A DNA stretch of 61,703 nt from Acidobacteriota bacterium. Lineage in GTDB: Bacteria > Acidobacteriota > UBA6911 > RPQK01. Under the pieces are notes generated by a model. The model searched no databases. It was not told the DNA's origin and saw only the letters and a list, made by a program, of their open reading frames with translations. The DNA lies in contig JBHGBF010000008.1 in the NCBI GenBank assembly GCA_041946865.1, positions 1 through 61,703 on the forward strand. The letters run 5' to 3'. Below are positions 44,926 through 56,456 of the stretch, in pieces; the stretch's first letter is position 1; every line of letters begins with the position of its first letter. The position numbers were made by a program, and so were the translations under genes.

Positions 44926-45756
44926 TCAGATGTCCTGGCGGCTGAGCAGGCGCCGGGCCACGACTAGCGGAGCAACGGCCCAGAATCCGAGAGCGAGGAG
45001 AAGCAGGGCGACACTGGCGGCGTTCCCTCCCAGGAACCTGACCAGAGCGGCCCCTGCCGGTCCAAAGATCTGTTCCCCGTTCAGGACGATCAGACTCGCG
45101 ACCCGAACCAGGTCAACCGGGTTGCCAAAAAGCGAGGCAAAGAGAAACGTATTGGCTGTTCTCTCCGGCAGCAGGAAGGTGACGCCGATGACGAGCAGGT
45201 CATAAAACAGGACGAAGAAGAACCAGACAAACAACGCAACGCCAAAAGCTACGGGCTTGCGCTTGCAGGCCAACGCGACTGCTGCCGAAAGGCTGAGGAA
45301 GACCATTGCGAGAGCCTGCGCGAGCAGGACCAGGAGGGGATAGCGCAGCAGGCCTTCGGCCCCGGCCTTGGCGGCAATGACCAGCCCCGCGACCCCGAAG
45401 CCAAGCAAGCTGGCCGCAAGGACCGCCGCAAAGAGACCGATGACCTTCCCCAGCAGGATCTCGGTGCGGGTTACGGGTTGAGAGAAGACCAGCTCCCCGG
45501 CGCTTCTCTCACTCGTCAGGCTCAATGTCCCCATGGTCAGGGAGACGAGCGGGACGATATACAAAACCAGGTTGAGCAGGCTTGCAGAAGTGCGGGTGAA
45601 CCCCTGAAAACCGAGCTCGGCAGCCGTCGCCAGTCCAAAATACGAAATGGCCAGCACCAAGGCGCCGAACACCAGGGCAAAGATCAAGATCCAGCGGTTG
45701 CGGATGTTGATCATCAGCTCGAGACGCGCCACTGTTCGGACAGAGATCAGGTTCAT
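44926..45756 (-). CDS. nosY: Nitrous oxide reductase maturation ABC permease
   Basis: RNRW, SLLNLVLYIVPL, LVFSQPVTR..ILLGK, NPVDLVR; position in cluster. Confidence 0.88.
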   Translation of the reverse strand: MNLISVRTVARLELMINIRNRWILIFALVFGALVLAISYFGLATAAELGFQGFTRTSASLLNLVLYIVPLVSLTMGTLSLTSERSAGELVFSQPVTRTEILLGKVIGLFAAVLAASLLGFGVAGLVIAAKAGAEGLLRYPLLVLLAQALAMVFLSLSAAVALACKRKPVAFGVALFVWFFFVLFYDLLVIGVTFLLPERTANTFLFASLFGNPVDLVRVASLIVLNGEQIFGPAGAALVRFLGGNAASVALLLLALGFWAVAPLVVARRLLSRQDI

Positions 45757-45808
45757 GGCTCGGCCTTCTAGTCAGTGCCACTAAGAAAAGGAAGCCGTTT
45801 GCGAGACG

Positions 45809-46258
45809 TCATCGGTGCGCCATACTCTTCATTACATCGGCGTAACTTGACACTTTTGCGTCGTACCTTGCGGCTGCCCGCTCGGCGTCGGACCGGTCTT
45901 TGAATGCGACGAGGCCGCTCGCCATAGGGGTTGATATGGCGCTGCTCCGCAGGAAGTACGCCTCTTTGACGTTCACCCATTCCCTTTTTTCGAAATCCAC
46001 TGCAAAAGCGGGGGGCTCGTCCCGTGTCGTGCGGTCCCTGATATCCGCGAGCAGACAGCCCAGATCATCGAATTTACGCGCCACACCGGCCTCCACCACG
46101 ATCTCGCCGGCAAAGCGCTTGTCGGAGATGGCCATTTTGCACCGGCTGCACATGTCCTCCGGATAGATCTCGACCGGTTCCAGTGTCGAGGAAATGCAGC
46201 CGGCGCTGCCCAAAACGATGGTGAACAGCAACGGCAACCAGAGGCGCTGAGCGCCCAT
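45809..46258 (-). CDS. nosL: Copper chaperone lipoprotein NosL
   Basis: Lipobox SAGC; CSRCKMAI, FDDLGC, TPMASGL. Confidence 0.9.
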   Translation of the reverse strand: MGAQRLWLPLLFTIVLGSAGCISSTLEPVEIYPEDMCSRCKMAISDKRFAGEIVVEAGVARKFDDLGCLLADIRDRTTRDEPPAFAVDFEKREWVNVKEAYFLRSSAISTPMASGLVAFKDRSDAERAAARYDAKVSSYADVMKSMAHR

Positions 46259-46274
46259 AAGAGATCCCTTCCGC

Positions 46275-53865: not shown

Positions 53866-53974
53866 GGCGCATCCTCGTTTCAAAGTAGTGGACGAAGGAC
53901 ACAGTGGACGACGCGGACTCGAGTCGTCGATTCGCGCCGTCCCTTTCGTCCCAACAGCCTGACGACTTTCGGTT

Positions 53975-54559
53975 TCACACCGTCACCCTGAATTCCCGAT
54001 CGGTTTCTTCCGAAGCGTCCACAATGAGCTGGCCATCGTCGGGGGAGACCTCGAGCTTGAAAAAAGGCAAGGGTCGGGGAGCAGGACCGGAATAATTGGT
54101 GCCGTCCCCGCGGTACCTGGAGCCGTGGCAGGGGCAAAGAAACTCGTGCTCTTCCTGCAACTGCCGTCCCCCAGCCTCGACGGTTTGGACCCGATCCAGT
54201 CGTCGCAGCTTCACGGTGCAGCCAAGATGCGTGCAGACCGCTGACATCGCCTGGAAAGTATTTTTATGGCGGAAGATAAAGACCCTGCGGTCATCCAGAA
54301 AGGACACGCCTTCCATAAACTGATCGGGTGTTCCGACTTTGAACCGGGGCGGCTCCTCGTACAGGACGTTGGGAACCAGAGAGCGCAGGAAAGCGTAGGT
54401 CTGTCCGGCCAGGCCCGCGACCACGGCGCTCACTCCCAGCCGTCGCAGAAAAGTGCGCCGGCCCGTGCCACTTACGGCCCCGGCCTCAATTGAATCCGGA
54501 CGCTCGGATAGAGTGTGAGGTTGGCTTGCCGGCGCCTGCGGCGCCTTATCGCTCGACAT
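53975..54559 (-). CDS. Rieske 2Fe-2S subunit
   Basis: Tat motif RRTFL; CTHLGC and [13 protein letters not shown]. Confidence 0.93.
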
Positions 54560-56456
54560 AGTTGAACACCTCCATGGTCATCGCATCGGTCGGGCAGCGA
54601 ACGGCGCACAGGCCGCACCGAATGCACTTCTCGTCATCCTTGATCATTGCCGACAGGGGCGCGCCGTTTTCGGAGGCACCGGAAAGCCCGGCAGCCGGGT
54701 GGATGATCTCGACATCGAGATCAAGTTCTTCGACGGGGACGAGCTTCAGGCAGCGCTCAGGGCAAACATCCACGCAACGGCTGCACAGGACGCAGGCGTC
54801 GGCGTTGTAGATGGTCTGGATGTGACAAAAAAGACAACGTTCCGCTTGCCTTCGAGCTTCCAGCTCGGCGTAGCCGCTCTCCACTTCTGATATTCCGGTG
54901 CGACGATCGAGATCTACTGAAGGCGGAGCCTGACGCGGGCGTTTCTCGTAGCCGGGCGCCATTCGGTAGGTCCGGGTCGGCAGCTTCTCGATATTGAGCT
55001 GTACGGCAGGTGCGGGGCGCTTTTTCCGAAGGTAGTCGTCGATGGAAAGGGCCGCTTGCTTGCCGTTGGCTACCGCATCGATCAGGTTCCGAGGGCCGAA
55101 GGCCACGTCGCCCCCGGCGAAAACTCCGGGCGCAGTCGTGGCCAGCGTTTTCGGATCGATCTGAATCGTTCCCCGGGGCGTCACCTGCACGCCATCAGAA
55201 GGCTTGAGGAAGGAGAGATCCGCCTGCTGGCCGACCGCCAGGATGACGGAATCCGCCTCCAGTCGCTCCTGTATTTCCGGAGCATAGACCGGATCGAACC
55301 TCCCGTCCGGATCGTAGGTCCGCGTCACACCGATCAATTCGATCGCGCACACGCGGCCGTCACGACCGGCGATTCGACACGGACCGCGCTGCGGGTGGAA
55401 CCGGACGCCTTCGCGCCTGGCCTCTGCAAACTCCTCCCGTCCCTGTTCGGTTCGCAGAGCAGGCATCTCTTCGAACGACTCGAGGCTGCAGATGCGGACT
55501 TCAGCAACTCCGGAACGAAGCGCCGCGCGAGCGGCGTCGAGAGCGCCCGGCATGAGGCCGCCCTGGTGATCGAGATCCGGTTCCAGCGCCGCGCGCAGCG
55601 CCATCCGGGCAGCATCGAATGCCACAAAACCGCCGCCGATGACCACCACCCGCTTTCCCAAGTCGGCCCTGTACCCGCGGTTGATGTTCAGCAGAAAATC
55701 CACGGCTTTGATCACGCCGTCCAATTCGGCGCCTTCGATCGTGAGATCGCGTCCCCGCTGAGTGCCGATCGCAATGAAGATCGCCTCGTACCCGGCGTTT
55801 TGAAGCTCCCGAAGCCCGAAGTCTTTCGTCAAAGGAAGGTTGAGCTTGACGTCGACACCAAGCCCGACAATCTTCTCAATCTCTTTGTCAATCACGGAGC
55901 GCGGCAGTCTGAATTCCGGGATCCCGTGGCTCAACATACCTCCCAGGGAATCACTGCCTTCAAAGATCATGACGCGGTATCCCATCAGCGCCAGATCATG
56001 GGCGCATGAAACGCCGGCCGGACCGGCGCCGATGACGGCTACCTTTTGAGGCGTTCCGTCTGGAGCCCTGGTACGGACCAGCTCAGGCAAATGCCATGAC
56101 ACCCGGTTGCCGGCATCGGCGACTCCTCTCAGAAGCGGGTCCTGAGTGTCCGGCAGAATCGACTCCACCCCGTACTTCTCACACAAAAAGCGCTTGAGCG
56201 CCCGAATGCTGACTGGTGCGTCGATCTTCCCGCGCCGGCAGCTGTCTTCACAGGGCGCGGCGCAGACGCGGCCGCAGATGGAAGCGAGCGGATTGGGGGA
56301 GCGAGCCACGAGGTAGGCCGGTTCCAACTGCCGTTGTGCAATGAGCTGCACGTATTTCCCGGCGTCCGTGTGCACGGGACAGGCAGCCTGACACGGAACC
56401 ATCCGCTTCCAGAACCCCATGTCAGGGACGATCGTCTTGTACTTCAACTCCGCCAT
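54546..56456 (-). CDS. GltD/NfnB-like NAD(P)H-dependent FAD/FeS oxidoreductase with C-terminal 2[4Fe-4S] ferredoxin
   Basis: CQAACP, CGRVCAAPCEDSC, GAGPAG, GIPEFRLP, GGGFVAFD, GVFAGGD, RCLFC, CVLCSRCVDVCP, CIRCGLCAVRCP. Confidence 0.9.
   Translation of the reverse strand: MAELKYKTIVPDMGFWKRMVPCQAACPVHTDAGKYVQLIAQRQLEPAYLVARSPNPLASICGRVCAAPCEDSCRRGKIDAPVSIRALKRFLCEKYGVESILPDTQDPLLRGVADAGNRVSWHLPELVRTRAPDGTPQKVAVIGAGPAGVSCAHDLALMGYRVMIFEGSDSLGGMLSHGIPEFRLPRSVIDKEIEKIVGLGVDVKLNLPLTKDFGLRELQNAGYEAIFIAIGTQRGRDLTIEGAELDGVIKAVDFLLNINRGYRADLGKRVVVIGGGFVAFDAARMALRAALEPDLDHQGGLMPGALDAARAALRSGVAEVRICSLESFEEMPALRTEQGREEFAEARREGVRFHPQRGPCRIAGRDGRVCAIELIGVTRTYDPDGRFDPVYAPEIQERLEADSVILAVGQQADLSFLKPSDGVQVTPRGTIQIDPKTLATTAPGVFAGGDVAFGPRNLIDAVANGKQAALSIDDYLRKKRPAPAVQLNIEKLPTRTYRMAPGYEKRPRQAPPSVDLDRRTGISEVESGYAELEARRQAERCLFCHIQTIYNADACVLCSRCVDVCPERCLKLVPVEELDLDVEIIHPAAGLSGASENGAPLSAMIKDDEKCIRCGLCAVRCPTDAMTMEVFNYVER

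Follow-up and report, generated by a model that had tools for sequence, protein, structure and literature searches.

A flavoprotein-bearing Rieske/cytochrome b gene module next to clade II nosZ in an Acidobacteriota bacterium, and its relation to anammox-type complexes

To our knowledge, the nitrous oxide (N2O) reductase NosZ represents the sole biological N2O sink, and outside Wolinella the electron supply and energy conservation of clade II NosZ are, as far as we know, poorly understood. In Wolinella succinogenes, N2O respiration reportedly involves NosGH, NosC1C2 and NosB together with the housekeeping Rieske/cytochrome bc complex. Here we describe a run of ten genes from an Acidobacteriota bacterium in which genes for an iron-sulfur (FeS) flavoprotein, a Rieske protein, a cytochrome b and a pentahaem cytochrome c precede nosZBDFLY. 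The run is located in the first 61,703 nucleotides (nt) of contig JBHGBF010000008.1 of assembly GCA_041946865.1, a stretch that we call the window. The locus appears to share with Wolinella the reliance of clade II NosZ on a Rieske/cytochrome b-type complex and on NosB. Unlike what is said of Wolinella, the window has none of NosG, NosH, NosC1 and NosC2, and its Rieske and cytochrome b genes are located inside the nos cluster, together with a flavoprotein gene.

Clade II nos gene clusters encode a Sec-type NosZ followed by NosB and NosDFLY and lack nosR and nosX. Upstream genes for Rieske, cytochrome b and cytochrome c proteins are a recognised feature of these clusters (PMC9697520; PMC13122619). 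In the accessible text of these two papers a large gene is at most labelled "Fe-S" in a figure, and neither its flavoprotein nature nor a link to anammox complexes is discussed there. No Rieske/cytochrome b complex is part of the nos clusters that are described in the genome papers of Ignavibacterium album and Melioribacter roseus.

Rieske/cytochrome b complexes with a flavoprotein are described, in the accessible parts of the literature, from the menaquinone-containing anammox bacterium Kuenenia stuttgartiensis (Kuste4569-4574 and Kustd1480-1485). In brief, each operon encodes an FeS flavoprotein, a Rieske protein, a split b6-like cytochrome b with a five-helix subunit IV, and a hexa- or octahaem cytochrome c that replaces cytochrome f/c1. 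The flavoprotein has an FAD site, a nicotinamide site and Cys motifs for about four FeS clusters, and haem cn is reported for the complex. The Rieske potentials of Kuste4569 and Kustd1480 are +303 and +335 mV, respectively, and the high potential is tied to a Ser and a Tyr adjacent to the cluster (PMC12954380). In the model of that paper, electrons leave the b haems, cross an additional haem b that is predicted at the dimer axis, and continue to four FeS clusters and FAD. The paper thereby backs an older proposal, in which one electron of the quinol is pushed uphill to NAD(P)+. Flavoprotein-type subunits of Kuenenia are reported to co-migrate with the complex (PMC12954380 and PMC5600118, citing de Almeida 2016). 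Outside Planctomycetes too, Dibrova et al. (PMC5600118) note similar oxidoreductase-subunit genes in the neighbourhood of cytochrome b genes "in many other cases".

A third related group is the APWY clade of cytochrome b, defined by Kao and Hunte (2014, PMC4122944). According to the accessible text of that paper no member had been characterised, and reverse operation was suggested. The clade consists of split cytochromes b, mostly with a WCMGG haem ci motif, and Cys35 is not universal in it. Its distribution is patchy and takes in unrelated phyla, among them Ilumatobacter-type Actinobacteria. Its members are additional to complexes of the PEWY/PDWY type, as is the module described here.

The ten genes in the window are co-directional and tightly packed on the minus strand, from position 56456 down to 44926. 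They are ordered flavoprotein, Rieske, cytochrome b, cytochrome c, nosZ, nosB, nosD, nosF, nosL and nosY, separated, from 5' to 3' along the run and counted from the longest open reading frame (ORF) starts, by -14, 91, 12, 64, 60, -17, -19, -11 and 52 nt. The flavoprotein (54546-56456, 636 aa) and the Rieske protein (53975-54559, 194 aa) are encoded by overlapping genes. Because the flavoprotein stop and the Rieske ATG overlap by 14 nt and a GGAGG lies upstream of this ATG, the two genes are, as predicted from this layout, translationally coupled. The cytochrome b gene (52543-53883) gives 446 aa from the longest ORF; its true start is probably the ATG at 53865, which is preceded by GAGGA. Next come the pentahaem cytochrome c (51343-52530, 395 aa) and NosZ (49356-51278, 640 aa). 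The starts of the flavoprotein, Rieske, cytochrome c and nosZ genes each have a strong Shine-Dalgarno sequence in front of them. An initial annotation, made from the letters of this stretch, had listed a ten-gene run of this content and order, with a GltD/NfnB-like FAD-FeS protein gene overlapping the Rieske gene, APWY in place of PEWY in the cytochrome b and a pentahaem cytochrome c, and without nosR or nosGH/C1C2. All of these points were borne out.

By analogy with the anammox complexes, we tentatively suggest that the products of the four upstream genes form a complex that bifurcates menaquinol electrons to NosZ and, via the flavoprotein, to NAD+, and that the ten genes form a single operon for N2O respiration. 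We regard this reading as possible and prefer it among those considered. In brief, menaquinol would be oxidised at the Qo site, and the first electron would pass from a high-potential Rieske centre to the membrane-anchored cytochrome c and further to periplasmic NosZ, with NosB and NosDFLY serving the maturation and maintenance of NosZ. The second electron would cross the membrane via the two b haems and reach the cytoplasmic flavoprotein, instead of or besides reducing quinone at the Qi site. Within the flavoprotein it would pass through about four FeS clusters to FAD, and two such electrons would reduce NAD+. The scheme would be the quinol bifurcation proposed for anammox, here driven by N2O reduction. 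It is favoured by a Ser/Tyr-type Rieske protein in combination with menaquinone, by an altered n-side of cytochrome b and by the strict linkage of the genes.

The Rieske protein (PF00355) contains the boxes CTHLGC and CPCHGSRY and an RRTFL twin-arginine motif. The top two of its 62 matches in the Protein Data Bank (PDB) are 9rk4 (1e-22) and 9rk3 (5.7e-20); the next is a b6f Rieske protein at 1.9e-13. The entries 9rk4 and 9rk3 are Kuste4569 and Kustd1480, respectively (PMC12954380), and are thus the closest solved Rieske chains. Because these are the two best matches, we consider the module in the window to be homologous, as judged by sequence, to the anammox-type Rieske/cytochrome b complexes with an NAD(P) oxidoreductase subunit, a relation that the initial annotation had pointed to. 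CPCHGS is found in all 46 aligned rows. Two positions after the Ser, 16 rows have Tyr and 30 have Phe, which are also the two states found in Kuste4569 and Kustd1480, and box II reads as the Ser (plus Tyr/Phe) signature of a high-potential centre. Since the genome encodes MqnA and MqnD of the futalosine pathway (242 and 181 bits) and MenD is under its cut-off, the quinone is most likely menaquinone. A high-potential Rieske protein in a menaquinone organism would be the energetic pattern required by the anammox bifurcation model, as far as the accessible text of PMC12954380 sets it out.

The cytochrome b contains the b6 part and subunit IV (Cytochrome_B and Cytochrom_B_C) fused in a single ORF. 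Hydropathy gives seven hydrophobic segments, three of them after the b6-like part. In contrast to the split cytochrome b and five-helix subunit IV of Kuenenia, the protein is fused and has a three-helix subunit IV. All four His haem ligands (H111, H125, H218 and H233) are identified by alignment to solved b6 chains. The sequence KAPWY is located at residues 337-341, and APWY is invariant in 42 of 42 aligned homologues. The motif is thus real, but it is not private to this locus, being the signature of the published APWY clade (PMC4122944). Members of that clade are described as split, mostly with a CxGG motif, whereas the family of the window is fused and reads (W/Y)LGT. Trp60 (motif FWLGT) aligns to b6 Cys35, the covalent anchor of haem cn. 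This column holds Trp in 30, Tyr in nine, Arg in three and Cys in none of the 42 homologues. With no cysteine to anchor haem cn, Qi chemistry is predicted to deviate from the canonical b6 type. H42 (motif LHWFP) is also invariant in 42 of 42, and an invariant pair, R238-K239, is located about 196 residues further on, after the bH ligand. Going by the published description, these residues resemble the His43/Arg247 and His62/Arg266-Lys267 sets of the modelled extra haem of Kuenenia. The best NCBIfam matches of the cytochrome b halves, and weakly of the cytochrome c, are the Geobacter proteins ExtP, ExtQ and ExtS (NF040969, NF040970 and NF040971); their scores are under the curated cut-offs (246 vs 290, 87.5 vs 150 and 38 vs 100), and the gene context differs.

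The cytochrome c (Cytochrom_C and Cytochrome_C7 matches) contains exactly five CXXCH motifs, at residues 73, 110, 159, 187 and 309, and one N-terminal hydrophobic anchor. Five motifs are also found in 33 of 38 homologues. We presume that it is the electron donor of NosZ. The Kuenenia counterparts are hexa- or octahaem proteins; here the protein is pentahaem, an HAO-like subunit is absent, and the terminal partner is NosZ.

The flavoprotein contains Fer4_20 (PF14691, 5.6e-17) and Pyr_redox_2 (PF07992, 1.2e-32) domains and a C-terminal domain with two CxxCxxCxxxCP motifs. Its best NCBIfam match is PRK12771 "NAD(P)-binding protein", 420 bits and under the cut-off of 516; NCBIfam equivalog scores are all far under their cut-offs, and a protein atlas search returned automatic "FAD-dependent oxidoreductase" names only. 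The best PDB match is NfnA 9n5u (2.8e-78), and NfnB chains 4ylf_B and 5jca_L are also matched. Sixteen Cys are invariant in all 47 aligned rows, C22, C26, C61, C65, C69, C73, C541 and C544 together with C555, C558, C561, C565, C611, C614, C617 and C621. They would suffice for about four FeS clusters, the number modelled in anammox, and would provide the cofactors of a wire that connects the membrane with FAD. Hydropathy gives neither a membrane segment nor a signal peptide, and the protein is predicted to be cytoplasmic.

With the NfnB/GltD small subunits (9n5u, 4ylf_B, 5jca_L and 2vdc_G; E-values from 2.8e-78 to 2.5e-42) the flavoprotein shares the Fer4_20 domain and two Rossmann domains. It differs from them in an additional C-terminal 2x[4Fe-4S] domain and in the position of a segment "R..EV..GY....EA.RCL.C", which is N-terminal in those proteins and located behind the FAD domain here (residues 517-547), as in 9bov and 8oh5. 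Genes for an NfnA or GltB partner are not found near the flavoprotein gene. A further difference concerns the nucleotide site. After the second Rossmann strand the flavoprotein reads SLES, whereas 9n5u, 9bov, 8oh5 and 4ylf_B read YRR(S/T), the NADPH motif. E326 is kept in all 47 rows, and L325 and S327 are almost as conserved. A Rossmann fold that has lost the Arg pair and acquired an acidic residue is expected to prefer NADH to NADPH. Because the NADPH-binding Arg-Arg is replaced by Leu-Glu, the sequence suggests that NADH is the more likely nucleotide. The pocket thus differs from the anammox flavoprotein in lacking the Arg-Arg pair, in a comparison that, for the anammox flavoprotein and cytochrome b, was made by description only.

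An NADH-type pocket bears on the main rival reading, in which the same complex is assembled and the flavoprotein works in the opposite direction. NADH would then be oxidised and its electrons passed into the b haems or to quinone on the Qi side. With a Q loop inside it, the complex would be an NADH:cytochrome c (NosZ) oxidoreductase in its own right and would form a dedicated NADH-to-N2O route past complex I. The Leu-Glu replacement and the invariant E326 fit catabolic NADH, the hosts appear to be heterotrophs with ample NADH, and electron flow in this direction is downhill and aided by the membrane potential. Synteny and homology support it just as they support bifurcation. Two points speak against it. 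The accessible text of PMC12954380 argues, for anammox, that flow from NAD(P)H to quinone wastes energy compared with complex I, and a high-potential Ser/Tyr Rieske protein in a menaquinone organism is not required for NADH input. We consider NADH input rather unlikely, and continue with the preferred reading of bifurcation.

The arrangement of the genes recurs widely. A scan of species-representative genomes with the flavoprotein gave at least 53 loci, and the ten proteins of the window were run against the 53 loci listed by tblastn. All 53 are metagenome-assembled genomes (MAGs) or Candidatus taxa. They come from Acidobacteriota (with 78% identity the closest among the matches listed), Ignavibacteriota, Bacteroidota, Kryptoniota, Calditrichota and Chlorobiota, and further from Myxococcota/delta-proteobacteria, Desulfobulbaceae, Acidimicrobiia and Hadarchaeota. 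In 45 of the 53 loci both a Rieske and a cytochrome b gene follow the flavoprotein gene on the same strand. For 39 loci, 5.3 kb or more of sequence is available downstream of the flavoprotein gene. Of these, 28 run colinearly from the flavoprotein gene through Rieske, cytochrome b and cytochrome c to nosZ; the same holds for L025, which has a shorter flank. The eleven non-colinear loci are L002, L032, L036, L038, L041, L044, L047, L049, L051, L052 and L053, and the remaining 13 of the 53 end too early to be judged. Among the matches listed, the colinear order from flavoprotein to nosZ is found in at least six phyla. As the same order recurs in 28 of 39 loci, the arrangement is not due to chance; it is common in public genomes and not special to the window.

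Since the above sample was drawn with the flavoprotein and is therefore biased, a second survey was started from nosZ, a survey of neighbourhoods that the initial annotation had also called for. In 300 other genomes of Acidobacteriota, 34 had a NosZ match at E <= 1e-100. Twelve of these 34 have a flavoprotein orthologue 3.2-3.9 kb upstream of nosZ, with both genes on one contig and one strand; a further genome has it on another contig, and 21 have none at E <= 1e-90. In the 22 genomes without an adjacent flavoprotein gene, no cytochrome b relative was found next to nosZ, the nearest being 12 kb away on the other strand (G039). In this sample, the nos-linked Rieske/cytochrome b genes are always accompanied by the flavoprotein. 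The Bacteroidota sample (in the GTDB sense, the phylum of L004) comprised 251 genomes, 85 with nosZ. After leaving out two seed genomes (G301 and G302) and three fragmentary matches, 80 were tested; the flavoprotein gene is found 3.4-4.1 kb upstream of nosZ in six of the 80, and on another contig in one. The four upstream genes behave as one conserved unit that is physically tied to clade II nosZ.

In both phylum samples the module-linked NosZ proteins are the shortest, with matches of 1713-1749 nt compared with 1752-1842 nt for unlinked ones over the same HMM span. These lengths suggest that the module is tied to one compact NosZ subgroup without an insertion of about 30 residues. When 47 flavoproteins were placed in a maximum-likelihood tree by a quick search, with SH-aLRT as its only support measure, all 29 nos-linked rows were grouped in one clade of 40 rows (support 99) in which phyla are mixed. 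Seven rows of this clade have no downstream nosZ, and the actinobacterial loci together with L040 form a sister group without nosZ. On a Blastocatellia contig (L018:3-260), a nosY fragment is located just upstream of the flavoprotein gene on the same strand, which hints at an alternative order with the nos genes before the module.

Modules without nosZ (among the loci listed L032, L038, L041, L053 and the actinobacterial loci) bear on a further alternative, the proposal of Kao and Hunte for the APWY clade. The whole complex would work in reverse, from periplasmic cytochromes to menaquinone or NAD+, and the position beside nosZ would reflect shared cytochromes or shared regulation only. The accessible text of PMC4122944 calls APWY characteristic of reverse-operating complexes, and the nosZ-free modules are in line with this. 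NosZ nevertheless needs a donor, and the cluster, with no NosR, NosGH or C1C2 in the run, provides no alternative path. Within the sampled subclade the linkage to nosZ is strict, and the run encodes no periplasmic enzyme that could donate electrons. We regard reverse operation of the complex as very improbable. One of the nosZ-free loci, in an Aminicenantes MAG (L041:3817-16376), has the module behind genes for a molybdopterin oxidoreductase, an NrfD-type membrane subunit and a cytochrome c with three Cytochrom_C stretches. A porin with a dihaem domain follows the module, and nos genes are absent from this locus.

Several points weigh against bifurcation. By our estimate, which is not a computation, NAD+ reduction from menaquinol is energetically marginal, because electron transfer from the P-side to the N-side opposes the membrane potential. 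The hosts look like organoheterotrophs with no obvious need for NADH made from quinol. The scheme itself, and with it the binding and the activity of the flavoprotein, comes from comparing sequences, and we infer from the same source that the flavoprotein is a bound subunit, how many cofactors it holds, that it uses NADH and, above all, in which direction the electrons flow. The electron path of the anammox complexes is, moreover, not simply transferable to the complex predicted here, because the latter lacks three features reported for them, namely haem cn, the splitting of cytochrome b and a subunit IV with five helices. A complex prediction of the cytochrome b dimer (residues 30-446) with residues 478-636 of the flavoprotein, made with protein chains only and with no controls, scored 0.08 against a mark of 0.32 and speaks neither for nor against a bound flavoprotein.

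Also weighing against bifurcation are relatives of the core that have no flavoprotein. We compared ten acidobacterial loci with relatives of the Rieske protein, the cytochrome b (34-46% identical) and the cytochrome c, in fetched regions of 2.5-11 kb, and found no flavoprotein-like gene in the fetched flanks of any of them. As such relatives of the same core, with 41-46% identity in cytochrome b, exist in Acidobacteriota, the Rieske/cytochrome b/cytochrome c core presumably works without the flavoprotein. Nine of the ten alignments cover H42, and eight of these nine flavoprotein-free cytochromes b keep it. H42 was therefore ruled out as a mark of flavoprotein-bearing cytochromes b; the residue is a feature of the clade rather than of coupling to the flavoprotein. 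WCMGG is found in seven of the ten. Within the Acidobacteriota, L059-L067 form a flavoprotein-free sister family with the Rieske box CPCHGSG, an APWY cytochrome b and larger multihaem cytochromes. Their cytochrome b matches in two pieces in six of nine, so likely split, and WCMGG is present in seven of nine. In their genomes nosZ is located elsewhere.

Two of the non-colinear loci point the same way. In a Desulfobulbaceae MAG (L036:585-11845), a gene for a flavoprotein homologue is located beside a nosZ cluster in divergent orientation, and no Rieske/cytochrome b gene is found in 8 kb downstream. In an Acidobacteriota MAG (L002:9599-13416), the flavoprotein and Rieske genes are followed by genes for TPR proteins and no cytochrome b gene. 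Both arrangements may be rearrangements or assembly joins.

The flavoprotein-free cores and the L036 locus would fit a reading in which the core is an ordinary Q-cycle route from quinol to NosZ and the flavoprotein is a co-transcribed but separate cytoplasmic enzyme, acting for example in redox sensing, in cofactor or NosZ maintenance, or in an unrelated NAD(H)-linked reaction. The lack of a membrane segment in the flavoprotein fits as well, as do six paralogues of its family elsewhere in the genome (29-35% identity). Against this reading, the flavoprotein gene is overlapped by, and apparently translationally coupled to, the Rieske gene. The linkage to Rieske and cytochrome b genes in 45 of the 53 loci includes loci without nos genes, and, as cited above, co-migration with the complex is reported for the homologous Kuenenia subunits. 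A separate enzyme appears improbable to us, and we retain bifurcation by a four-subunit complex as the preferred reading.

A stronger claim would be that the nos-linked complex is a true quinol-based bifurcating NAD+ reductase, in which N2O reduction pays for NAD+ reduction and the NADH re-enters via complex I, giving more protons per electron than an ordinary Q cycle. We consider this doubtful. If true, it would be a new energy-conserving loop in anaerobic respiration and a test bed, outside anammox bacteria, for the anammox bifurcation hypothesis. It would also be a candidate reason for the higher biomass yields that are reported for some clade II N2O reducers (PMC5864245, accessible text). 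If the flavoprotein is a bound subunit, bifurcation could be tested in ordinary heterotrophs instead of in anammox bacteria, which grow slowly and are difficult to manipulate. The answer matters for how well non-denitrifying N2O reducers grow and compete, that is, for their growth yield and competitiveness, and for their N2O affinity. The module is an electron route encoded beside nosZ in about one third of the nosZ-bearing Acidobacteriota sampled (12 of 34) and in fewer of the Bacteroidota/Ignavibacteria (six of 80). Members of Acidobacteriota and Bacteroidota/Ignavibacteria are abundant in soil, sediment and sludge. The module is of interest because it gives access to a test of a bioenergetic hypothesis in a pathway of environmental importance.

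Clade II nos clusters, APWY-clade cytochromes b and anammox-type Rieske/cytochrome b complexes with a flavoprotein are all known already. The combination of such a module with NosZ, a fused cytochrome b without haem cn and an NADH-type pocket are not discussed in the searchable literature. In a search of the full-text literature, which leaves subscription-only reviews and supplements outside its range, we found no paper on the flavoprotein in nos clusters or on its link to anammox complexes. In line with the initial annotation, which knew of no biochemical characterisation, none was found in the searchable literature.

The genome (96% complete, 3.7% contamination) contains two NO reductase loci. 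One product is a qNor-type NO reductase of 769 aa, matching solved qNORs at 2.4e-170, and the other a cNorB-like protein of 461 aa, matching 3o0r_B at 9.6e-105 (both by phmmer against the PDB). The loci are C376:12706-14061 (L056) and C385:6595-7842 (L055), and the two NorB-like ORFs have no NCBIfam match at 1e-10. No protein in the genome exceeds the NirK cut-off (best 36 bits vs 296), NirS gave only a 41-bit partial match inside a 1023-aa ORF, and NarG was not found in the genome search, which gave only a marginal NrfA-family match of 25 bits. Thus, of the nirS, nirK and nor genes that the initial annotation had named for a genome check, two nor genes are present, and nirK and nirS were not found. 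By its gene content the organism looks like one that consumes NO and N2O and has neither nitrite nor nitrate reductases. With nor and nos and no nir or nar it would be a net sink of NO and N2O, which agrees with the relevance as an N2O sink put forward earlier.

A second Rieske/cytochrome b pair is encoded on contig C235 (L058, approximately 1815-5988). Its Qo motif is PEWF, it reads YYLGG, it has no flavoprotein, and its cytochrome b lacks the N-terminal His motif of the LHWFP type. Genes for two multihaem cytochromes, one of them ExtKL-like, follow, and the pair adjoins a sigma-54 two-component system. As the genome keeps this second, flavoprotein-free complex, the nos-linked complex is an additional and specialised one, and the term "dedicated" used in the initial annotation is reasonable.

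NosZ is encoded by a single-copy gene. It matches TIGR04246 (Sec-dependent) with 907.8 bits against a cut-off of 625, and TIGR04244 (TAT-type) with 476.3 bits, under the cut-off of 625. The Sec-type call carries the caveat that the N-terminus reads KMRRFTW, so that an RR pair is present. NosB (48585-49295, 236 aa from the longest ORF) is a putative membrane protein with four hydrophobic segments and no Pfam or NCBIfam match. In the absence of a family model it is named by conservation and by its position between nosZ and nosD; by tblastn, a NosB-like gene is located behind nosZ in 25 of the 29 colinear loci listed, and the other four loci end first.

The remaining nos genes encode the maturation protein NosD (47177-48601; TIGR04247, 403.5 bits against a cut-off of 300), the ABC ATPase NosF (46275-47195; PF00005, position conserved across related loci), the copper chaperone lipoprotein NosL (45809-46285; PF05573, 5.3e-11) and the ABC-2 permease NosY (44926-45756; PF12679, ABC2_membrane, six to seven hydrophobic segments). 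All six of nosZBDFLY are thereby assigned, nosB by position only. The Pfam scan found no FMN_bind, Fer4_5 or NapG/H-like family among the products of the ten-gene run; Fer4_5 proteins of the genome are encoded on other contigs only. With a Sec-type NosZ, nosB and nosDFLY, and with nosR and nosX absent, the cluster classifies as a clade II (Sec-type) nos cluster.

A non-coding block upstream of the flavoprotein gene (56524-56556, minus strand) is conserved between the window and its two closest loci, L001 and L002. It contains TTAGAACT and TTGCTGATATGATCAA. The latter is an imperfect palindrome (56524-56539, minus strand) located 68 nt upstream of the flavoprotein ATG, within a stretch of about 17 nt with 16 columns invariant among the three loci. 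The block may be an operator, and the palindrome is a candidate operator of the operon. By its letters it is not an FNR-type box. FNR/CRP-type boxes (TTGAT-N4-ATCAA, at most two mismatches) were found in seven of 51 upstream regions of the flavoprotein gene and in five of 53 gene-body controls, which is no enrichment. The palindrome TTGCTGATATGATCAA was rejected as a regulon mark, because it occurs only once in exact form in the genome and the nor genes have no copy close by. A -35-like TTGACA (56509-56514) follows the conserved block, without a good -10. A sigma-70 promoter scan gave one hit against a shuffled expectation of 3.2, which is not above it, and a terminator scan gave 16 against 13.3, which we do not count as above expectation.

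Downstream of nosY, after 92 nt, a small outer-membrane beta-barrel protein of 187 aa (OMP_b-brl, 3.7e-08) is encoded at 44270-44833 on the minus strand; none of the 53 related loci listed gave a tblastn match to it. Elsewhere the window encodes an RHS-repeat protein of 1422 aa (25631-29899, plus strand) and a bacterial serpin of 410 aa (29948-31180, minus strand, 1e-114). A GatB-like ORF of 662 aa is located at 4630-6618 on the plus strand. Its GatB_N match is stretched over residues 15-452, which suggests that this ORF contains a large insertion.

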